A stretch of 64,000 bases of DNA from Bdellovibrio sp. (GTDB lineage: Bacteria; Bdellovibrionota; Bacteriovoracia; Bacteriovoracales; Bacteriovoracaceae): contig JACPIU010000008.1 in assembly GCA_016187935.1 (NCBI GenBank), positions 292,086-356,085 of the forward strand, given 5' to 3'. Positions 4,558-15,078 of this stretch are shown here, piece after piece. The position numbers and the translations under genes are program-made. Within the stretch, counting starts at the first letter, position 1; every line of letters starts with the position of its first letter. The notes under the pieces are model-generated. The model saw only the letters and a list, made by a program, of their open reading frames with translations, ran no database searches and was not told where the DNA came from.

Positions 4558-5595
4558 TTAATAACATCTACAGCTAGGCGAAGTTGATCCATCATTGCAT
4601 AGGACTCTCTTATCTTCTTTACAGCAAGCTTGACTTTTTTTGGGGCCAGCGACACCGTTATGGTGACTACAACATCCTCTGATTGTCGCAGGCATCAACT
4701 GACTATCTATGGGGCAGGCTGAAGCATTAGAAAAATTATTGCTGCTCTGAACTGTTCGATTTGTTTGGACATCTTCGTTAAACCACGTTGAAAAATTATT
4801 CTCTGCCTCTATCCGTTTTTCTACCTCGTCAGGCAATTGTGAAAAAAAATTAATGCCGGTTATTGCCTCAACACTGTCAACCGAAACTGCATAGTCTTTA
4901 ATGTCATTGGAATTGTAGTTTTGGGGAATTATAAATCCTATTGCCTTTTGCTCTGAACCTTCCTCCAATAATACTTTAAAAAACTTTCGTGGAATTGTAA
5001 CCGCCGAATTTGGGAGCTTGCCTTCTGCCTCACTTAGGATTGGCCCAGTAACGACATAAACTTTTCCATATTTTTTTGTCCAACCTCTGACTTTCTCCTC
5101 CAAATTTTTCCATATACCACGATTTAATTTCGGACGCTGTGGAGTCATGTTACTCATTAAGAAAGAATCTGACATGGACTCTACAGACCATGCCATATCT
5201 ACGGCAGGTGCCAAATGCCCTTTATCAAATCCACTTCTTGCATAATCTTTTGGTAAAGCACTCCCTCCTTCAACATTATTGTCAGCATGAAAATTATTGC
5301 TCCTACTTGCCACTGTTGAATTCAATTTTTCCTTCGTTATAGAATAGCCCACCCAATTTGCGATCTTCTCGCTACTATTAAACGAAAGATAGTAGCCGTG
5401 ACGTACATAAAGTTTTTCATTTGCTTTTAATGCAGGAACTTCAAGCCCAAACTCTTTGACCTTTTTGCTTGGACTCGTTGATTCGATTTGAATATTCTGC
5501 GACGTTGTGACGGTTTGTGGGAATTGATGATCCTGTACAGTGGTGGAACAACCGTAAAAAAAGCTTGTGAGAAAAATTAGAAAAGATATTTTCAT
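4558..5595 (-). CDS. secreted DNA/RNA non-specific endonuclease (Endonuclease_NS family) lipoprotein
   Basis: Lipoprotein signal MKISFLIFLTSFFYGCS. Active-site-like FDKGHLAPA (Serratia nuclease DRGH motif). Eight Cys in the last 40 aa. Confidence 0.8.
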   Translation of the reverse strand: MKISFLIFLTSFFYGCSTTVQDHQFPQTVTTSQNIQIESTSPSKKVKEFGLEVPALKANEKLYVRHGYYLSFNSSEKIANWVGYSITKEKLNSTVASRSNNFHADNNVEGGSALPKDYARSGFDKGHLAPAVDMAWSVESMSDSFLMSNMTPQRPKLNRGIWKNLEEKVRGWTKKYGKVYVVTGPILSEAEGKLPNSAVTIPRKFFKVLLEEGSEQKAIGFIIPQNYNSNDIKDYAVSVDSVEAITGINFFSQLPDEVEKRIEAENNFSTWFNEDVQTNRTVQSSNNFSNASACPIDSQLMPATIRGCCSHHNGVAGPKKSQACCKEDKRVLCNDGSTSPSCRCY

Positions 5596-5616
5596 TAATC
5601 AGACCTTGTTTTTGTT

Positions 5617-6033
5617 CTAGATAGAATTCGTTAACTCATGAATCTTTTCTTGAATGTTAGTAGTGCCTTCAGTATCCACAAAATCAATCTCGTTAGTTTC
5701 AGTTTTGTCACACATGGCGAGCTTTGCCGCTTTAGCATGGAAACAGATAGAAAAATGTGCTTTTCTTCCTAGAATGGCCCAATCTGGAGAATATTTTTTG
5801 ATAAAATCCATGTACTCCTTTTCAGAAGGGTCCAGATTCTTATTAAGTTCTTGCAAATAGATCGTCATCGAGATATTTGTCAGATCATTATTCATAACTT
5901 TTCTCGACAAATAACCTCTTAAACGTTTATTGGCTGCGGCCATGTCAGTTCTAATTTCCGTTATGTCTTGCTCACTTATTTTATGAGAAAGAGATGTGCA
6001 TGAGATTACAATAAGGATTAATAGATATTTCAT
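5617..6033 (-). CDS. small secreted/lipoprotein, hypothetical, co-oriented immediately upstream of the nuclease
   Basis: Signal peptide MKYLLILIVISCTS. Overlaps the end of the upstream gene. Confidence 0.45.
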   Translation of the reverse strand: MKYLLILIVISCTSLSHKISEQDITEIRTDMAAANKRLRGYLSRKVMNNDLTNISMTIYLQELNKNLDPSEKEYMDFIKKYSPDWAILGRKAHFSICFHAKAAKLAMCDKTETNEIDFVDTEGTTNIQEKIHELTNSI

Positions 6034-7010
6034 ACAAGTCCCTGCCAACAGACCACTGGTTGATCTAGATTATTACCATCTTGCGTCGATGAAATTGATC
6101 TTCCTGTATCCAGATTTATGGCGGGAATATCCTCACTTGTAAGCTTCCCTTCACCGTAGCAATAATCATATACTTTGAGTGCTATTGGCTTCAGCACTTT
6201 AAATAATGCGGGAAGACAGTCATCGAAAAAATTAATATCTTTATTTAAGAAATTTGTTTTTCGTCCAAATGCTTGATTATTTCTAAGCCAAATTGATTCA
6301 TCTTTTTTCTTCAACACATCTTTCGCATCATGAAAGAAATAGGTATCTAGACCTGGGAAGTTTGAGTAAAATTGGAAATGATTTCCCTCTGCCAGCGCAA
6401 ACATGCCATGCATATCATCTACCCAATCTTCAATTCGTTCTTTGTTCGTTTTGTGTCCATAGACAGAATTAATTGCTTCTGAAAACAGATTTGAGACATG
6501 AGAAAAATCTTTTTTAAGTGGGTCCATTATTTGATCGTGCAAGTTCGTCCAATTTAGATTTACGCTGGCCCCTGTCCCTTGTGAAAAATAATCGAGAAGT
6601 ATGACATCGAGTCGCATTTCAAGGGCCCGATGTTCAGAGGAGTGATCGTCGTAATTTCCGACCTTATCACGGATAAAAGGATGGATGATCCCATCAGCGA
6701 CCAGGTGACTTATGTATCCAAGAAAAAAGGCAAAACATTCGTCTTTTTTGTCACTATCCTGCATCGCTTTGATTTTTTGAACACCATAGAAGGGAACAAG
6801 ATTTGTACTCCTATAGTGTAGATCATCAGCTATTTTTTCTTCGCTATTTAGGAACCTTGGGATTTGTGAATATGGTAGGTCTGGGCCCAAGGCTCCAAGT
6901 TGAAAATATTTAAGTTTTTCATCGAGTAACAAACCTAAGCTGTGCTCACTAAGATTCGTTTTTTCGTTAAACAATTTGGCAAAGGTAATATGTGAGTATC
7001 CGCTTGGCAT
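6030..7010 (-). CDS. zinc-dependent phospholipase C-like family protein (tentative)
   Basis: LGALGPD and HLVADGIIHPF His/Asp motifs resemble the bacterial zinc PLC-like superfamily. 326 aa. Confidence 0.4.
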   Translation of the reverse strand: MPSGYSHITFAKLFNEKTNLSEHSLGLLLDEKLKYFQLGALGPDLPYSQIPRFLNSEEKIADDLHYRSTNLVPFYGVQKIKAMQDSDKKDECFAFFLGYISHLVADGIIHPFIRDKVGNYDDHSSEHRALEMRLDVILLDYFSQGTGASVNLNWTNLHDQIMDPLKKDFSHVSNLFSEAINSVYGHKTNKERIEDWVDDMHGMFALAEGNHFQFYSNFPGLDTYFFHDAKDVLKKKDESIWLRNNQAFGRKTNFLNKDINFFDDCLPALFKVLKPIALKVYDYCYGEGKLTSEDIPAINLDTGRSISSTQDGNNLDQPVVCWQGLV

Positions 7011-7229
7011 TGTACTTTCTCCTCTTTGCTAAAAGAATAATTCATGCTAGCATAATATGCGCAGAAGAGAAATGTATTCAACTGTATTCCAAGATGACGC
7101 TCCTTGGAATGCTACTTATAGAGCAATTGACTGCGCACTTTTTGCCCTGTCGAAATTATCAATATGACCACAATTAATTTTACCACTTTTCGAGCTACGG
7201 TAAAAAGTTCTTGAAAGATTTGAGGCTAT

Positions 7230-8942
7230 ATGACTAAAAAAATTAATTTATCAATTTATCTTTCCAAGCTAGGCATTGCCCCTAACGATTGCGTCGATGG
7301 GGAAGCTGTTGCAGACACACATGCCGCGAGGATTGAGCTTTCATTAAAAGATGCTCCAGCTTCGTTTGCATACATCGGAATTACTCCCGCAAAAGAGCCA
7401 AAATGGATGAACCTTGTTAAGTTGAACACGGATAAAAGCGGTAAAGACAAGCTAGCGGAGATGAATACGTCGACAGTTAGCATATCGTGCATGATTGTAA
7501 TTCATTTAAAAAGCAAAATGAGATCATTTATTTTTTGTTTTGGACATGGAAAGAAATTTCTAAAATATGAGTCAGTTGAGAAAAATTTTGGCAGAAATCT
7601 TGTTCTAAATACCGCTGATGAGTCAAAAATATCAACGATAAGGACCAAAAGCTTCGAAAGCCAGCCTCTTTTCAAAGAGCTTCAATCACTCCTAACAACA
7701 GATCTTTATGAATTTGGATTCAATTGCGATTATGAACTACTTCAAAAGGTTGTAGGCAGTGCTGAGGGAAAACTTCCAAATACATTTTTTGAAAAACATG
7801 GAAAGGGTCAAAAAGAGCTATTGTCATATAAATTTTCTGGATACGAAGCAGTGAATATAAATGTTGATATTGAACATCTTGGCTGGTCTAAGTTATGCAA
7901 CTGGTTACTTGAAAAGTATTCAGAGAGAACATATAAAAAACTAATACCCAACATAGATTTTTTTGACTTCATAAAGGAGGAGTCCATTATTAAGTCAAGA
8001 AATGACGAGTTAATAGCACTCATCAGAGCTAATCAACTCGACGATATAGCTCTATGCATTCCTGAAAAAATTGAGAATGATGATATTACGGGGTTTGAAA
8101 TTAAAGGGACAAAATATACAAAAGATAGCCAGCTCGAACGATTGATTCTGGATGATATTACAGAGGCACTGAGAGAAGTCGGAAAACTTGGGGCCATTGA
8201 CATTGACGACTTAAAAAGATGGAAGGTGAATGCTTTTGCAGGCGATGATTTCAGGGGCACTTGGAGCATTTTCAGATGTTTAACTATTGAGCTACTTAAG
8301 CCAGACGGGAGGTATGTTCTTTCAGATGGCGAATGGTACCGCTTAGATAAAAATCATTTCACCAAAACAGTGAAAGATTTAAATACAAGAGTTCAGATTA
8401 ACCCATTTCCGTCTTTCTCCATCAGCGTACACAAAGATGAAGCAGGTTATAATAAAGCGGTTAGTGCTCAGTTCGGGCACTACCTGTTTGATAGAAAGTT
8501 GCAAGCAAGTTCCTTAGGGCAAGAAATTGAGCCATGCGATGTACTCTGCTATTTAAAGGATTTTTTACATATTAAAAGATCAAAATCTTCTCAGTCACTT
8601 AGCCACCTTTTTAATCAAGGAGTTGTTTCGAACGAATTAATTGTTAGGGGTGATACAATTTTTACAACAAATATTGTTAGTTCTGTTGACAAGAAAGATC
8701 AAAAAAACATCAGTGAGATTATTGAAAAGAAAAGGCACGAGGTTTCTTTTGCCATCATCGTTGAGAATCGAAAACAGATTGATCTCTCAAAAAAAATTGA
8801 AAACCTTCCAGCTTTTAGTATTATTTCACTTTCAAAAACTGTTGAAATAATAGAGAGAGGTGGGAAAAAAGTAAAAATTTACTTGATTCCAACTGGCACT
8901 GCTCCTAAGCAGAAAGTGAAGATTATAAAGAAAAAGGCTTAA
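7230..8942 (+). CDS. large orphan protein (570 aa), possibly a TIGR04141/DUF6119-like sporadically distributed family
   Basis: Intact 570 aa ORF with no catalytic motif recognised. Converges on the defense operon with a 16 bp gap. Family assignment is from memory only. Confidence 0.5.
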   Translation: MTKKINLSIYLSKLGIAPNDCVDGEAVADTHAARIELSLKDAPASFAYIGITPAKEPKWMNLVKLNTDKSGKDKLAEMNTSTVSISCMIVIHLKSKMRSFIFCFGHGKKFLKYESVEKNFGRNLVLNTADESKISTIRTKSFESQPLFKELQSLLTTDLYEFGFNCDYELLQKVVGSAEGKLPNTFFEKHGKGQKELLSYKFSGYEAVNINVDIEHLGWSKLCNWLLEKYSERTYKKLIPNIDFFDFIKEESIIKSRNDELIALIRANQLDDIALCIPEKIENDDITGFEIKGTKYTKDSQLERLILDDITEALREVGKLGAIDIDDLKRWKVNAFAGDDFRGTWSIFRCLTIELLKPDGRYVLSDGEWYRLDKNHFTKTVKDLNTRVQINPFPSFSISVHKDEAGYNKAVSAQFGHYLFDRKLQASSLGQEIEPCDVLCYLKDFLHIKRSKSSQSLSHLFNQGVVSNELIVRGDTIFTTNIVSSVDKKDQKNISEIIEKKRHEVSFAIIVENRKQIDLSKKIENLPAFSIISLSKTVEIIERGGKKVKIYLIPTGTAPKQKVKIIKKKA

Positions 8943-8958
8943 CTTGATTGTAGTTTTC

Positions 8959-9639
8959 CTAGACTTTTACTTTTAAAAAGCAATGAGCCCCCAATTCCCA
9001 TAAAAATTTATAATTATTTCCGAGGATTATTGGTGGCCCATAATTATTTGTCTTGTAGTCTAATTTTTTGCATGCAGTATATTCTGCTCCATGCCTAAAA
9101 TCAAAATCTCCAGTATCATTCGAATAAGTTTTCTGATCAACATAATGTCGATGATCCGTGCCGACTATTAAAAAACCTAAATCAGAGATTCGATTACTCA
9201 CGTATGTCTCAAGATTTTTCAAATCGACAAATACATCATAGCGATTGTTTGGCTCGCGCTGGTTTATCTTTTTAAAGAATTTCAGTTCAATCGCGCAGAA
9301 GGCAGGCTTTTCATTTTTTTCTGTATTTTCAAATTTTAGAAAGATATCAATATTAGCTTTATTTGAATTACTCTTCAGAAAGGATTGTCCGACAAGTGAT
9401 ACAGGGGCTTCAAGTTCAATTGAAAAATGATCATTGGCCGAGTACTCCGCCAATTCGCCAAGTATTTTAAAAATGCTTGCTAAGTGAAGCTGTAATGAAG
9501 CCTCATTATTTATTGTCGTCATGCCCGATTCAAGTCTCTTGTGTAAGATCATCAATCCATCATCGACAATTTTCTCTAACCTATTGTTATAACTTTCTAC
9601 TTCGATTGGAGAGCAAGGATGAGCACTTCTCAGCATCAT
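8959..9639 (-). CDS. small protein with a possible PD-(D/E)xK nuclease-like core
   Basis: NIDIFLKF ...(about 20 aa)... CAIELKF fits a D...ExK arrangement. Start overlaps the stop of the upstream gene (translational coupling). Confidence 0.35.
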   Translation of the reverse strand: MMLRSAHPCSPIEVESYNNRLEKIVDDGLMILHKRLESGMTTINNEASLQLHLASIFKILGELAEYSANDHFSIELEAPVSLVGQSFLKSNSNKANIDIFLKFENTEKNEKPAFCAIELKFFKKINQREPNNRYDVFVDLKNLETYVSNRISDLGFLIVGTDHRHYVDQKTYSNDTGDFDFRHGAEYTACKKLDYKTNNYGPPIILGNNYKFLWELGAHCFLKVKV

Positions 9640-9640
9640 T

Positions 9641-10597
9641 TTAAACCACCGAACTTAAAAGAGATAAGTCTTGAGTATTCAGCAAATGCTTAATCTTAGG
9701 CCTTAATTTTTCCACAAGCTCCTCAAGGTTTACATAGTATTCAATGTTCCATTGCGCCAGATGAAATTCCGCTTTAGAACCTACAGGGCAAGTTAGAATC
9801 AAATCTGTTCCAATAGCACGGGCAAAACCAAACTCATAATACACATTAGGCCGATTGCCTCCTAAGTCGCAAATAACTAGAAGTGACTTCTCTAGCCACT
9901 TTTCAACTGATGGAGAAATTCTGTCTTTATGGACCAAGGAAGGATTATCAATTTTATCAATGCTTGCCCTACAGTCAGTGGCCAAATCAGAAGCTTTTTT
10001 TATTGCAAGAAATTTTTCATGAGCCATCAATACTTCATCATGATCAGTGTTCCTATTCGGGAAAGCCATCATTACAGCAATATCAGGGATATCATATATC
10101 CTTCTATCTTGAACACTTTTCATAACTATAAAATTGGTCTTTAGATTGTATTCATCTATTTTCCTATCTATTAGACTTTCCAAGGGATCACTAAAGCTGC
10201 AAAAGCTTGATGCGCCAATCGCTACATATCTCTCATTTCGTCCTGTTTTTATAGCGATGTTGTCAATAACCGAGTTGTTCCATTGAACATAGCGCGCTGA
10301 TAATTTTTGCTTCAAATTAATTTTTGTCAAATTCCAAAATAAATTACTATCTCTCCGTCTGGACTCCTTTAGCAGCAAATCTAAATCTTCCAAAGTTAAT
10401 TCAAAAATTTTTCTGAACATTTTCCCAACGATCTCTCCTACTAATTTAGCGTATGAACTTTCTCTAATAATATGTGTCTCTAACTCGTTAATAGCGACAT
10501 CCAGCTCTGCCCTCTTTTGCTCTGTAATTTCAGCTTCTCTATTAAAAAAAATTCTGTCAATTAACTCATTTGTTGCTTTTGAAAAAAAGTCATTCAT
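9641..10597 (-). CDS. protein with a C-terminal NDT/LOG/TIR-like Rossmann domain (candidate effector or sensor)
   Basis: DIAVMMAF strand, then LLVICDLGGNRPNVYYEFGFARAIGTDLIL. This matches the nucleoside 2-deoxyribosyltransferase/TIR-like hallmark (conserved Glu in a YE.G.A..G context). Start overlaps the cyclase stop. Confidence 0.45.
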   Translation of the reverse strand: MNDFFSKATNELIDRIFFNREAEITEQKRAELDVAINELETHIIRESSYAKLVGEIVGKMFRKIFELTLEDLDLLLKESRRRDSNLFWNLTKINLKQKLSARYVQWNNSVIDNIAIKTGRNERYVAIGASSFCSFSDPLESLIDRKIDEYNLKTNFIVMKSVQDRRIYDIPDIAVMMAFPNRNTDHDEVLMAHEKFLAIKKASDLATDCRASIDKIDNPSLVHKDRISPSVEKWLEKSLLVICDLGGNRPNVYYEFGFARAIGTDLILTCPVGSKAEFHLAQWNIEYYVNLEELVEKLRPKIKHLLNTQDLSLLSSVV

Positions 10598-10598
10598 A

Positions 10599-11471
10599 TT
10601 AAGCCTTTTGCAGTAATCTTCTTACTGGATTTAAAACATCGCCATTGAAATTATGACACTTCAATCTGTAGCAGGTAATAAAAGAAACATAGGATTTAAG
10701 CCAGTTGTACTTTGAAAAATAGTTCAGGTCTTTATAAAGGCCAAGAATTATATTTTCGGCAATTTTTTTTACAAGATTTGTGCCGTTAACATTTGCTAAA
10801 CTGCCCACATAATCTACAAAAAGATGTGTATCTCTATCAAAAGGCATATTCATTTCTTCAAGCATTCTCCAGTCAAAAAGGAGCGACGAATAATCGTTCA
10901 TTGATCTTGGTTCAGAAAAATATTCATAGAGCCGACCTCCATTTACCGCCTCAATGAAATCTTGAAGCATCGCGAATTCGCAATACTCTGCAATTTTAGG
11001 ATCAACAATTACTCGTGGATACTTGGCAATTTCACTTTCAAGTCGGTATGCACTAACGAGTGCCGGGCCGGCAATTACATTTTTCGCTTTGTCTATAAAG
11101 ACTTTTCCTTTTGAAACTCCTCCCCTTGTCCAAAAATTATTTAATGCAAGTTGAGCTTGCATCCTTGAAATACTAACAAGAAATTTTTTCAGAGATTTTA
11201 TTTTATTACACTGATTATTTGCGCCATTGAATTCAGCAGCGAGCAGAGGTGCTGTGATGATTATAGAATCACTAATTACAAAAAAATTTATGTCGTCTTC
11301 TCCATCAACTAAGTCCAAGACATCTAGGAATCCCAGGACTGTAGAAAAATAAAAACTCAAATCATCCTCGGATTTTTCTCCAAAAACTTTTTCTTTAAAA
11401 CCTAGAACATCAATAAAGGCAACATAGCATTCCTCATAATCAACATTCACCCTATAGTTTTTTTCTCTCAC
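10599..11471 (-). CDS. class III nucleotidyl cyclase homology domain protein (Pycsar PycC-like or novel cyclase)
   Basis: YVAFIDVLGFKE (metal Asp1, like FADIVGFT). FFVISDSIII (Asp2, like KTIGDAYM). RGGVSKGKVF...AGPALVSAYRLESE (like GDTVNTAARMES). Confidence 0.55.
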   Translation of the reverse strand: MREKNYRVNVDYEECYVAFIDVLGFKEKVFGEKSEDDLSFYFSTVLGFLDVLDLVDGEDDINFFVISDSIIITAPLLAAEFNGANNQCNKIKSLKKFLVSISRMQAQLALNNFWTRGGVSKGKVFIDKAKNVIAGPALVSAYRLESEIAKYPRVIVDPKIAEYCEFAMLQDFIEAVNGGRLYEYFSEPRSMNDYSSLLFDWRMLEEMNMPFDRDTHLFVDYVGSLANVNGTNLVKKIAENIILGLYKDLNYFSKYNWLKSYVSFITCYRLKCHNFNGDVLNPVRRLLQKA

Positions 11472-11572
11472 CTAAATCTCCAAGTCAAAATTAATCGGCC
11501 CAATTCAGTAAGACAAATTTTGCGAGATTTAAGTAGCTCGCAAGTGAAAAGAGGTAAAAAAGATACATGATC

Positions 11573-13387
11573 TTAAAGCTTTCCAAACTGTTTAAAGATT
11601 TCACGAATCTCCTGGAATATGTCTGGAGTCACAGTTGGTGCAGCTTTGATATATAAGCGCTTGAGTGTGGCAACATCAATTGGCGTCTTCGAAGCAAATT
11701 TTTTTAATATCGGCTTGCCAGGAATCTGTTTTTGCCATTCATCGGAATCATAAATTATGAAATTCGAAAGTCTTGCAAAGTCGGTACGTACAAGTTCTCG
11801 GACTATATTAGTATCGAGAGTACTACTAATTCTTTTTACTTCTGAATCCCGTTGTACATCAAAAAGAGACTCAAGCTTTGCTACATCAACACAGTGACAT
11901 TCCTGAGGCATCAAATCTGCATTGCCTGTGGCATTACGTAGTCGATGTGCGACGTGTAATGCAACGGCATAGGATAGAAAATCTTTAGCAATCGTCAGGA
12001 GTTCTGCTCTGATTTTGACCGGATCACACAACCACGATCCTTTCGGTTCATCTAGTTGCTCGAACACACGCGCGATCACGTTTTCGTTCAAAAAGTAATT
12101 TTCAACATGATAACGGGGAAGAATTTTAAGGCGCCCCCCTGTTTTGTCACCGGACGTACTGGTCATGCAGTCACCATCACAGAGCATGAAGAAGTCTACC
12201 CCCCATACTGTTTTGTTAAGGACTGTTTCAAATGCCTTCACAAACGAATGAATACTTTCTTTGCCTCCTGTTGGCACAAGCACGAATTCAGGGTGCTCTG
12301 ATCCAACAATGCTGCCATACGTTTGTTTATCTAGGCTCGATGAAATTCCCTCGATGAGCACTATTTTCTTCCCAAGTGAGATCACACCTATGGATTGACC
12401 GATCAAATGTAGCACTTTCGATGCTTCGTCATCTTCTCTAAGCTGTACTGCCTGGTTTGGCCTTCCTGTGTTTGGAGGAGCCACAAAAACTACCGATTGA
12501 TCAAGTGAGGCAGTGATAATGTCAGGGGAATGCGTAGAGAGAATAAACTGATTCCTCTCACCAATATCACGCAATGTACGTAAAAGTCGGTATGACAACT
12601 CTGGGTGAAGATGAAGCTCCGGCTCGTCGAAAATAATAATACAGTCCTTCGGATCACGGAGTAAAAAATCGAACACAATAGAAACTACCTCGCGTTCGCC
12701 GGAACTCAACGAGGTTAGTGGGAGAACAGTACCATTGGTCTTAAATGAGACTGTCTGCGATCGTTCATTCAGCTTTTCGAGTGTCTTACCAGGCAGTAGT
12801 TTTGTAAATGCATCTTCAAATTTTTCTAGTGGATATTGAAAATCGAGAGGCATTGACTTTTCGCCTGACTCTTTCAAGAGAAGTGCGCGTTTAGATATTT
12901 CTTCTTTCTGGCTTCTAACTTTTCTATACAACGAATGAATGGTGTCCTGAAACCGGCCTCTCAAAGGTTGATATACTGTATTCCAGCCTATGTTCTCCTG
13001 TAGGGGATCAGCCGACTCCCAATTAAAGTTGTATGGCTGTACTTGTTCGAGTTGGCGAGCCGAGTCAAAATTAAGCACACTGCTTCTAAGCTGGCCCCGC
13101 TTCTGTTGGCGTTGCAAGAAAGCACGGAGTTTCGCTGCTTCTGCCGGAATCGAGGTTTGCAACGTATGCTGTCCCCAGGCTGCCACCTCTTCCTGATTCG
13201 TAGCACGTACTTTTGCAATAATACTCGGAAGGCCACCAGGATTTTGAAACAGGTTTAATAACTGCACCATGAGGGTCGTCTTACCTACACCATTAGGACC
13301 AGCAAGAACAACCGTCTCAAAAAGTCCCTCGACGGAAAATGCTTCAATAGGTTTGGCACCTTTGACTGAGTAGGATTCAAGCTTCAT
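11573..13387 (-). CDS. OLD-family ATPase-TOPRIM nuclease (class 1 OLD-like)
   Basis: Walker A GPNGVGKTT. LSSGEREVV signature. IIIFDEPELHLHPEL Walker B. STHSPDII H-loop. C-terminal IVLIEGISSSLD ... CDGD TOPRIM/DUF4435-like Glu and DxD. 604 aa, matching P2 Old size. Confidence 0.7.
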   Translation of the reverse strand: MKLESYSVKGAKPIEAFSVEGLFETVVLAGPNGVGKTTLMVQLLNLFQNPGGLPSIIAKVRATNQEEVAAWGQHTLQTSIPAEAAKLRAFLQRQQKRGQLRSSVLNFDSARQLEQVQPYNFNWESADPLQENIGWNTVYQPLRGRFQDTIHSLYRKVRSQKEEISKRALLLKESGEKSMPLDFQYPLEKFEDAFTKLLPGKTLEKLNERSQTVSFKTNGTVLPLTSLSSGEREVVSIVFDFLLRDPKDCIIIFDEPELHLHPELSYRLLRTLRDIGERNQFILSTHSPDIITASLDQSVVFVAPPNTGRPNQAVQLREDDEASKVLHLIGQSIGVISLGKKIVLIEGISSSLDKQTYGSIVGSEHPEFVLVPTGGKESIHSFVKAFETVLNKTVWGVDFFMLCDGDCMTSTSGDKTGGRLKILPRYHVENYFLNENVIARVFEQLDEPKGSWLCDPVKIRAELLTIAKDFLSYAVALHVAHRLRNATGNADLMPQECHCVDVAKLESLFDVQRDSEVKRISSTLDTNIVRELVRTDFARLSNFIIYDSDEWQKQIPGKPILKKFASKTPIDVATLKRLYIKAAPTVTPDIFQEIREIFKQFGKL

Positions 13388-14473: not shown

Positions 14474-14764
14474 CTAGGCCACATCTCGAATATTCAACTC
14501 CACCGAAAGACTTAAGGCAGAGGCCAGACGAATTAATCGTTCAATGGAAACACTTTGAAGACTGCCGTTCACAATTCCAGACACCACCGTCCTTGAGAGT
14601 CCAGAGGCTTCTGCAAGTTCGGCACAGGTTAGCTCTCTCACCTCTGTCTCCTTAATGATCCGTTTTTTGAGTGTCGTCTTCATCTTCGAGATCAGTACCC
14701 TATCCGATGTGACCCCCAGGTCCTTCCCAAATTCCTCAATGGTCTTATAGCGTTTCATTTTCAT
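14474..14764 (-). CDS. higA: HigA-family XRE HTH antitoxin
   Basis: LTCAELAEASGLSRTVVSGIVNG helix-turn-helix. Overlaps the toxin stop. Confidence 0.75.
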   Translation of the reverse strand: MKMKRYKTIEEFGKDLGVTSDRVLISKMKTTLKKRIIKETEVRELTCAELAEASGLSRTVVSGIVNGSLQSVSIERLIRLASALSLSVELNIRDVA

Positions 14765-15078
14765 TCCAACCTCTTTATTCTCTGAATAGACACCTCAATG
14801 TCTTTCTTGGATGTCTGATTTGTTTTCTTCTGGAAACCGTGGACAAGATAAATGGCGCCCCCTTTTTTTATAAAGTAGATGACCCGATAAACGCCAGACC
14901 GCTCCCTAAAGCGAAGTTCAAACACACCTGGGCCCATACCTTCCATCTTTTTTGAGAAAGGCATGCTCAAAGTTATGCCGGCCTTAAGATCGGCGATAGC
15001 ATCCACCAATTCCTCTTTGACCTTCAAAGGAAACTCACTTATTTCCCTTGCGCACTGAGGCAATACAACCACATCCAC
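14761..15078 (-). CDS. higB: HigB/Gp49-like RelE/ParE-superfamily toxin
   Basis: GPGVFELRF...YRVIYF...IYLVHGFQKKT is the Gp49/HigB hallmark. GTG start preceded by AAGGAG. Confidence 0.75.
   Translation of the reverse strand: MDVVVLPQCAREISEFPLKVKEELVDAIADLKAGITLSMPFSKKMEGMGPGVFELRFRERSGVYRVIYFIKKGGAIYLVHGFQKKTNQTSKKDIEVSIQRIKRLE

Follow-up and report, generated by a model that had tools for sequence, protein, structure and literature searches.

A two-domain protein of Bdellovibrio sp. that joins a helical domain to an NDT-like domain, and its possible role as a stand-alone nucleotide-cleaving effector

The subject of this study is a two-domain protein of 318 amino acids (aa), encoded on the reverse strand at positions 9641..10597 of a 64,000-nucleotide stretch of Bdellovibrio sp. 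DNA (contig JACPIU010000008.1, positions 292,086 to 356,085), a stretch that is called the window below. Regarding its C-terminal domain, profile comparisons and the predicted structure place it in the superfamily of the nucleoside 2'-deoxyribosyltransferases (NDT), DNPH1 and MilB ('DrHyd'), the sister of TIR, with the active-site motif intact. As for its function, we favour the explanation that the protein is a toxin or abortive-infection effector acting as a single protein, and hold this to be, on balance, somewhat probable; direct evidence exists for the fold and for the match of the active site, and the role in defence, like the substrate and the trigger, is a proposal. The helical N-terminal domain, and the two-domain family as a whole, are undescribed.

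The gene, delimited from the list of open reading frames (ORFs), its homologues, their alignment and an AlphaFold2 model, starts with ATG and has its stop codon at 9641-9643. A search of 5.8 billion proteins found an identical NCBI entry, hypothetical protein HYV97_03825 from a metagenome-assembled genome (MAG) of Bdellovibrio sp., and 17 further full-length homologues of 302-333 aa (35-47% identity, E 1.8e-84 to 1.1e-45); because of these full-length homologues and the identical database entry, the ORF is a real gene and not a chance ORF. The resulting family of 18 sequences, with the Bdellovibrio protein included, is the basis of the family alignment and of the AlphaFold2 model; 45 columns of the alignment are invariant, and they are concentrated in its C-terminal half.

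The C-terminal domain and its active site

The C-terminal domain, an NDT/DrHyd-type (TIR-related) Rossmann-like domain, comprises residues 160-318 (9644..10120, reverse strand) and is the proposed N-glycosidase effector. The AlphaFold2 model, computed from the 18-sequence alignment, has a mean pLDDT of 84.6 and a pTM of 0.55, and the relative position of the two domains in it is unreliable because this pTM is low. Residues 160-318 themselves are modelled confidently as a Rossmann-like NDT/TIR fold, with three alpha/beta layers and a parallel sheet, as in the flavodoxin-like fold of the TIR type; the order of elements in the Rossmann-like domain (residues 173-306) is strand-helix-strand-helix-strand-helix-strand-strand-helix. 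In Foldseek comparisons with the PDB, the BcmB cytidine monophosphate (CMP) N-glycosidase, NDTs and DNPH1 ranked first and TIRs came later, with probabilities near 1; DprA was found with a probability of just 0.63, and the comparison with viral models returned CMP hydrolase and NDT proteins. The first-pass annotation of this DNA had staked its proposal on an NDT/TIR-like fold, and both AlphaFold2 and Foldseek return that fold.

At the sequence level the relationship is distant. No Pfam or NCBIfam family is matched significantly by the protein, and searches of the PDB sequences with the full protein, as a single sequence or as a family profile, gave nothing significant. When 1.84 billion cluster representatives were searched exhaustively with a profile, 3720 proteins came out at E<=1e-3; about 30 belong to the family over their full length, and the others have just the C-terminal domain in common with it. 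Among 50 of these remote relatives, 44 matched the NDT profile PF05014 (best E 9e-8) and 3 matched TIR_2; the homology to PF05014 is transitive only at the Pfam level, because it rests on the remote relatives and on profile searches. A profile built from 30 diverse C-terminal domains (that of the Bdellovibrio protein plus those of remote relatives) was compared with the PDB; its matches were DNPH1/Rcl (E 2.8e-5), NDTs (about 2e-3) and a CMP N-glycosidase (0.016), and the TIR protein Cap12 reached an E-value of just 1.2. By sequence profile, the domain is thus nearer to NDT than to TIR, and the Pfam profiles TIR, TIR_2 and TIR-like matched none of the 18 family members.

SLOG identity was also considered for this domain and rejected: no SLOG profile matches any of the 18 members, and among the 50 remote relatives only LDcluster4 (2 proteins) and STALD (1 protein) were found. 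The resemblance to NDT, SLOG and TIR that had been claimed from the sequence holds, therefore, for NDT by profile and for TIR by fold; the SLOG part of the claim, and TIR at the level of sequence profiles, did not hold.

The active site lies in the block of residues 241-261, VICDLGGNRPNVYYEFGFARA, which is encoded at 9815-9877 (reverse strand) and is the block that had been quoted at the outset. In the 18-sequence alignment D244, R249, N251, Y254, E255, F256 and G257 are invariant, as is the complete catalytic motif D244...N251-V-Y-Y-E255-F-G. The block aligns with the DNPH1 segment VVVAEVTQPSLGVGYELGRAVA, and hhalign of the C-domain profile against human DNPH1 (probability 92%, E 6e-7) pairs Glu255 with Glu104 and D244 with E93; the core of the human DNPH1 sequence used in this comparison agrees with the alignments of the C-domain profile search. 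Glu104 is established as the nucleophile of DNPH1. Glu255, whose codon as read from the translation is at 9833-9835 (reverse strand), is accordingly placed on it by the alignment, and is the predicted catalytic nucleophile. It fits the superfamily motif x-Y/F-E-h-G, in which the catalytic Glu comes after the central strand. The Glu of the YYE motif had been put forward earlier as a conserved active-site residue, and this is borne out: it is invariant both in the family and in the 30 diverse superfamily domains, across which only M177, D244, E255 and L294 do not vary.

A further detail of the domain regards its first beta-strand, IAVMM (residues 173-177, followed by A-F-P at 178-180; 10066..10080, reverse strand), which the model assigns to residues 173-176. 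The family sequence here is VAVMM[W/A]FP, with M176, M177, F179 and P180 invariant and with Tyr absent. In NDT and DNPH1, the specificity for 2'-deoxy substrates comes from a Tyr that stands at the end of the first strand and is paired with the catalytic Glu by a hydrogen bond (PMC11204291). The invariant Met-Met-x-Phe-Pro of the family has no identified counterpart of this Tyr, a difference that is deduced, as the strand is not spanned by any profile alignment to solved enzymes. The absence of Tyr would allow for a ribo-substrate, NAD+ for example, and is only a hint in that direction.

The C-terminal domain has in part been recorded before. The PADLOC model PDLC00733, a CBASS model named 'Effector, TIR', is matched over its C-terminal 90 positions by all 18 family members (best E 4.4e-9) and by 49 of the 50 remote relatives; because of these matches, the same domain is already catalogued as a predicted defence effector, under a loose name, the 'TIR' label being loose because the relatives score on the NDT profile. 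The likeness to PDLC00733 is limited to this domain: the N-terminal 280 positions of the model are unmatched, and no CD-NTase is encoded nearby.

An alternative regarding the domain is that it is a non-catalytic nucleotide sensor, similar to the SLOG and STALD domains, which would act through the helical domain. The fold class is in common with the SLOG sensors, and three divergent full-length paralogues (P0029, P0032 and P0033), in which both domains are retained and the catalytic Glu is gone together with much of the motif, show that the scaffold can be maintained after loss of the catalytic residue. Against this stand the invariance of the full catalytic motif in the family and of D244 and E255 in the superfamily, the lack of SLOG profile matches in the family, the lack of a conserved signal-producing partner, and a helical domain with no recognisable effector activity; we regard a sensor as very improbable. 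The sensor had been one of the two roles suggested in the first-pass annotation, and it is judged unlikely, since no position of the NDT-type catalytic motif varies. The three paralogues may be inactive forms of the protein that serve as regulators or decoys.

In place of YYEFG, these paralogues have YSVLG, YSAIG and FCLWG. The gene of P0029 (locus L056, 2013-2978) is flanked by groES/groEL and by a PIN toxin-antitoxin pair.

The helical N-terminal domain and its other partner

The N-terminal domain (residues 1-159; 10121..10597, reverse strand) is all-helical and is proposed to be a regulatory, sensing or oligomerisation module. In the AlphaFold2 model it consists of five long helices (residues 2-40, 46-79, 84-118, 122-136 and 139-158), and it has a conserved loop motif, GRRDxxxFWN, that includes R81, D83 and W88. 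It has no Pfam, NCBIfam or PADLOC match and no specific fold match in the searches made; the earlier description of a helical and uncharacterised N-terminus holds in these respects, and its extent is corrected to about 160 aa from 170. No signal peptide and no known trafficking domain is recognisable in it, and the Pfam, NCBIfam and PADLOC profiles of known signal-binding domains (SAVED, STING, cNMP-binding, SLOG and Macro) found none in the protein.

The helical domain is confined to the family, with a single exception. This is P0079 (locus L009, 162-1748), in which it is followed by a C-terminal domain that is not NDT-like and that has stand-alone homologues of about 310-335 aa, here called the P0286 family. 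The P0286 family has the invariant motifs L-G-A-G...G-x-P and T-F-N-Y-D; in comparison with the SIR2 NADase KomC (E 0.0077), its GAG and NYD motifs are aligned. Pfam SIR2_2 is matched by 3 of its 17 members (best 5e-4), and the PADLOC SIR2 models match the member in locus L001 at 2.3e-8. The P0286 domain is, by these profiles, probably SIR2-like. Judged from sequence, the helical domain is thus modular and has become fused, in the course of evolution, to two different domains of a kind that consumes NAD+, as its partner is NDT-like in the family and SIR2-like in P0079.

The P0286 family is small and otherwise without Pfam annotation. Its genes stand alone in mobile islands at four loci (L008, 357-1316; L001, 408-1424; L010, 6001-6951; L012, 6001-7008). 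In L008, the gene is directly upstream of the family member P0009, and in L001 another is three genes upstream of P0007.

A similar arrangement, with a constant C-terminal domain behind changing partners, is found in the wider superfamily. The NDT-like domain is at the extreme C-terminus in 125 of 131 remote representatives, and the N-terminal extensions have a median length of 134 aa; BLAST groups those of at least 80 aa, 104 in number, into 55 unrelated clusters. TPR, HEAT, SPFH and Lon-substrate-binding domains are among the partners in these fusions, as is, once, ImpA_N-Hcp. Proteins of conflict systems that combine a sensor with an effector would be expected to show just this pattern, in which the putatively enzymatic domain is constant and the N-terminal domains vary widely.

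The ImpA_N-Hcp fusion is found in P0101, a remote relative of 554 aa in which the NDT-like domain stands behind ImpA_N and Hcp, both parts of type VI secretion, and it is the reason to think that the NDT-like domain may also be used as a secreted toxin payload. The same could be proposed for the protein in the window, namely that it is a toxin delivered into other bacteria or into prey, with the C-terminal domain as its payload: the host is a predator, and the C-terminal position of the toxin domain is typical of delivered toxins. However, the N-terminal domain has none of the trafficking features named above, there is no conserved downstream immunity gene (the downstream ORFs at the family loci are unrelated or absent), and polymorphic toxins keep their N-terminus and vary the toxin domain, which is the reverse of what is seen in the superfamily. 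For the protein in the window, delivery is therefore an improbable explanation.

Genomic context in the window and at related loci

The gene is located in a region of the window with a lowered content of guanine and cytosine (GC), 0.34-0.37 over 7-12 kb as compared with 0.40-0.51 in most of the window, and the dip at 7000-12000 is consistent with horizontally acquired DNA. Three genes of the reverse strand are closely packed there: a 290-aa protein (10599-11471) is encoded directly upstream, and a 226-aa protein (8959-9639) downstream, with spacers of a single nucleotide (TAA-n-ATG, twice). About 1 kb from the gene is that of a 604-aa protein with AriA and AriB of PARIS fused (11573-13387, reverse strand; PADLOC 1e-51; AAA_15/AAA_21; DUF4435 below threshold, E 0.0024); a hairpin with a T-rich tail, at about 11520-11545, follows the PARIS stop codon and lies between the PARIS gene and that of the 290-aa protein. 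Because of the single-nucleotide spacing and of the hairpin that separates the PARIS gene, the 290-aa gene, the gene of interest and the 226-aa gene are probably co-transcribed. Promoter and terminator scans were not above chance (16 as compared with a shuffled expectation of 13.1 +/- 4.2).

Of the two partners in this probable operon, the 290-aa protein is matched by no model of PADLOC, Pfam or NCBIfam. It belongs to a family of 238 hypothetical members, found in Aliarcobacter, Aeromonas, Bacteroidota, Bdellovibrio and others, whose neighbours vary between genomes; the invariant motifs of this family are D21-V-L-G-F and S67-D68-S69, and these align with the metal-binding motifs of the class III adenylate cyclase 4p2m at a non-significant E-value of 2.6. 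It may represent a new family of palm-domain nucleotidyltransferases or cyclases. The 226-aa protein has no Pfam or PADLOC match except a weak one to DUF7424 (E 0.014); by eye, its IDIFLKF...FCAIELKFFKK resembles the motif of the PD-(D/E)xK nucleases.

Other genes of the region complete the picture. A 570-aa protein of the DUF6119/TIGR04141 type, described as 'sporadically distributed' (7230-8942, forward strand; Pfam E 3.4e-97; no PADLOC match), is encoded convergently to the three-gene operon. The edge of the island holds a toxin-antitoxin pair on the reverse strand (14474-15078), in which the gene of a Gp49/HigB-like toxin (105 aa) overlaps that of an HTH_37/HTH_3 antitoxin (96 aa). At 4558-7010 (reverse strand) two hydrolases are encoded, an Endonuclease_NS of the lipoprotein type (345 aa, E 3.6e-55) and a phospholipase C that depends on zinc (326 aa), which are in keeping with the predatory way of life of the source organism. 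The window holds no tRNA gene or integrase that would mark the borders of the island, and the integrases and other neighbours at the related loci have no homologue in it; in the Rfam scan of the window, all families stayed below their gathering scores.

Regarding the roles that this neighbourhood could offer, membership in PARIS was rejected, the AriAB gene being complete alone and the protein being neither an ABC ATPase nor a DUF4435/TOPRIM protein. The role of a retron effector was rejected as well, with no reverse transcriptase (RT) domain among the neighbours and no Rfam RNA in the window, and so was that of one half of a toxin-immunity pair, with no conserved downstream gene.

The comparison was extended to about 15 other loci with family members (L001-L008, L036-L039 and L057-L062), whose neighbours, together with those in the window, were compared all-against-all. 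No neighbouring gene is common to all, or even to most, of the approximately 16 loci, and homologues of the 290-aa and 226-aa proteins are absent from all of the about 15 others; the ORFs downstream of the family genes have 226, 177 or 130 aa, or there is none, and they are mutually unrelated. Because no neighbour is common across the loci, the gene is taken to be a stand-alone gene. What recurs instead is the kind of surroundings. At six loci (L001, L003, L006, L036, L059 and L060) the gene is followed by a convergent tyrosine integrase, either immediately or with one small ORF in between. The neighbours in L001 include a SIR2-like gene, Abi_alpha and SLFN_AlbA_2; in L008 there is a second SIR2 gene (1.7e-9) besides the upstream P0286 gene; in L038 an Avs4-like NTPase is nearby (9e-16); and L002 has a methyltransferase with Eco57I and ResIII genes, which are of the restriction-modification type. 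This is read as cargo of the defence islands and integrative elements of the Bdellovibrionota, encoding a protein that does not need a dedicated partner gene.

The first-pass annotation had linked domains of this sort to CBASS-, Pycsar- and Thoeris-like systems. PADLOC and Pfam scans found no CD-NTase, no PycC cyclase and no ThsB TIR among the neighbours; because, in addition, no neighbour is conserved across the approximately 16 loci, membership in any of these systems is not supported.

The tight packing of the three genes in the window nevertheless raises the question of a local system, in which the 290-aa protein would make a nucleotide signal that activates the protein of interest, the 226-aa protein or both, in a Pycsar- or CBASS-like manner. 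The single-nucleotide spacers and the hairpin that sets the three genes apart from the PARIS gene would agree with it, as would the motifs of the 290-aa family, which align with 4p2m in its only hint from the PDB, and the match of the C-terminal domain to the PADLOC model of a CBASS effector. However, none of the other loci holds either partner, the 290-aa family has variable neighbours of its own, its cyclase match is not significant and no profile identifies it, and the protein of interest has no known cyclic-nucleotide-binding domain. A three-gene system of this sort is rather unlikely. A more specific version, a new signalling defence system, is less probable still: the 290-aa protein would represent a novel cyclase family, its messenger would be sensed by the helical domain, which would switch the N-glycosidase on, and the 226-aa member would contribute its nuclease-like D...E-L-K motif; the same helical domain would then also be able to drive a SIR2-like NADase, as in P0079.

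As for the distribution of the family, the genomes with a full-length member are MAGs of Bdellovibrionota, except for one labelled just 'bacterium'. Full-length members are absent from IMG/VR, the GenBank phages and the PLSDB plasmids; the GenBank phages have no match to the protein at all, and the matches in IMG/VR and PLSDB are remote relatives of the C-terminal domain only, annotated as hypothetical. Some copies of the family gene are not intact: the copy at 7977-8922 of locus L039 has a frameshift, and those at 3636-4148 of L036 and at 5692-6498 of L057 are N-terminally truncated. This suggests that in some lineages the gene is decaying, or that its intact form is selected against there, a sequencing error being the alternative in the case of the frameshift.

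These data also bear on a housekeeping or nutritional role, in which the protein would be an N-glycosidase of (deoxy)nucleoside monophosphates, (d)NMPs, of the DNPH1/MilB kind, and would process or detoxify nucleotides from digested prey. Its best relatives by sequence and by Foldseek are DNPH1, NDT and the CMP glycosidases, the family is confined to the Bdellovibrionota, and NUDIX, HIT, glyoxalase and acetyltransferase genes are neighbours at some loci, with the secreted nuclease and the phospholipase C in the window. However, the distribution is sporadic and not that of a core gene (18 close homologues in 5.8 billion proteins, about 30 by the exhaustive search), integrases are downstream at six loci and defence genes are near several others, truncated or frameshifted copies exist in L036, L039 and L057, the 160-aa N-terminal domain can be swapped onto a SIR2-like domain, and there are paralogues without the Glu. 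A housekeeping enzyme is thus unlikely, though it is the least improbable of the alternatives.

Proposed mechanism and relation to known effectors

For the single-protein effector, the following mechanism is proposed. The five-helix N-terminal domain would hold the enzyme inactive until an infection cue arrives, and would then switch it on, probably through the dimerisation or oligomerisation that the active sites of NDT and TIR require. The C-terminal domain would act as a toxic effector by hydrolysing the N-glycosidic bond of an abundant nucleotide. By analogy with the NDT-like effector of retron-Eco1, with TIR and with SIR2, NAD(P)+ would be the likeliest substrate, with the (d)NMP or nucleoside triphosphate pool as the alternative; taken by itself, the assignment to NAD(P)+ is tentative and a good deal more doubtful than the effector role. 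The outcome would be nucleotide depletion and metabolic arrest of the infected cell, that is, abortive infection.

Among known enzymes, DNPH1/Rcl, the NDTs and the CMP N-glycosidases MilB and BcmB (PF05014, clan Nribosyltransf) have the active-site segment in common with the family, with Glu255 on their nucleophile Glu, and they cleave the N-glycosidic bonds of nucleosides and nucleotides. They are metabolic enzymes of a single domain and of small size (about 135-190 aa), whereas the protein in the window adds a helical domain of 160 aa and has a mobile or defence context. A closer parallel in function would be the effectors of retron-Eco1 (Ec86) and of retron-Sen2 (RcaT), which have an NDT-superfamily domain with a catalytic Glu; the retron effector is toxic, anti-phage and inactive until a phage cue. 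The NDT-like effector of Ec86 hydrolyses NAD(P)+ (PMC12673091), and its catalytic residue is E106 (bioRxiv 10.1101/2023.08.16.553469). Two differences should be noted: the retron effectors are controlled by the RT and its msDNA, neither an RT gene nor an Rfam RNA being found near the gene studied here, and the NDT-like domain is N-terminal in Ec86 but C-terminal in our protein.

The TIR NADases (SARM1, AbTIR, ThsB and SpbK) and Swarozyc have a catalytic Glu at the equivalent place. Swarozyc is a single-gene TIR-like NADase that is activated by a phage portal protein through an auxiliary domain (bioRxiv 10.64898/2026.05.01.722283); like the protein in the window, it combines the enzyme domain and an auxiliary domain in one chain, and its auxiliary domain senses the phage protein and drives assembly. 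However, neither our protein nor any of the 18 members has a match to DUF4062, the domain of Swarozyc, and the order of the domains is reversed.

Several points weigh against the effector and should be considered together. Regarding the C-terminal domain, its closest relatives by sequence (DNPH1, NDT and MilB) are metabolic enzymes and not NADases; the protein alone has no PF05014 match at E<=1 and does not reach the curated Pfam threshold, PF05014 is touched by 10 of the 18 family members, all below threshold (best E 0.005), and the E-values of the Foldseek matches in the PDB are weak (0.01-0.3). In the AlphaFold2 model, the arrangement of the domains is uncertain at the pTM of 0.55. As for P0079, the matches that make its C-terminal domain and the P0286 family SIR2-like are weak to moderate, and its AlphaFold2 model, made without an alignment, had a pLDDT of 40 and was not used. 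Regarding the context, several homologues adjoin ordinary metabolic genes (NUDIX, acetyltransferase, glyoxalase and HIT), and the gene in the window is translationally coupled to two unknown genes, which leaves some probability to a local multi-gene function there. Finally, the effector role of the family has been deduced wholly from sequence, predicted structure and context.

In conclusion, a specialist would not be surprised to find in a defence island one more NDT/TIR-like effector that bears the Glu, and it is the domain swap that is informative. We know of no NDT-like effector that has been characterised outside the retrons; if the favoured explanation is true, the protein would add to the bacterial immune enzymes a nucleotide-depleting effector of the NDT type that acts as a single protein, and it would bring with it a new control domain, attached both to NDT-like and to SIR2-like enzyme domains of the NAD+ type. 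The protein represents a very large unannotated clade, and solving one member would help to annotate thousands of 'hypothetical proteins'. To our knowledge, the anti-phage immunity of the predatory Bdellovibrionota has barely been studied, and the family would, if this explanation is correct, offer a first look at it.

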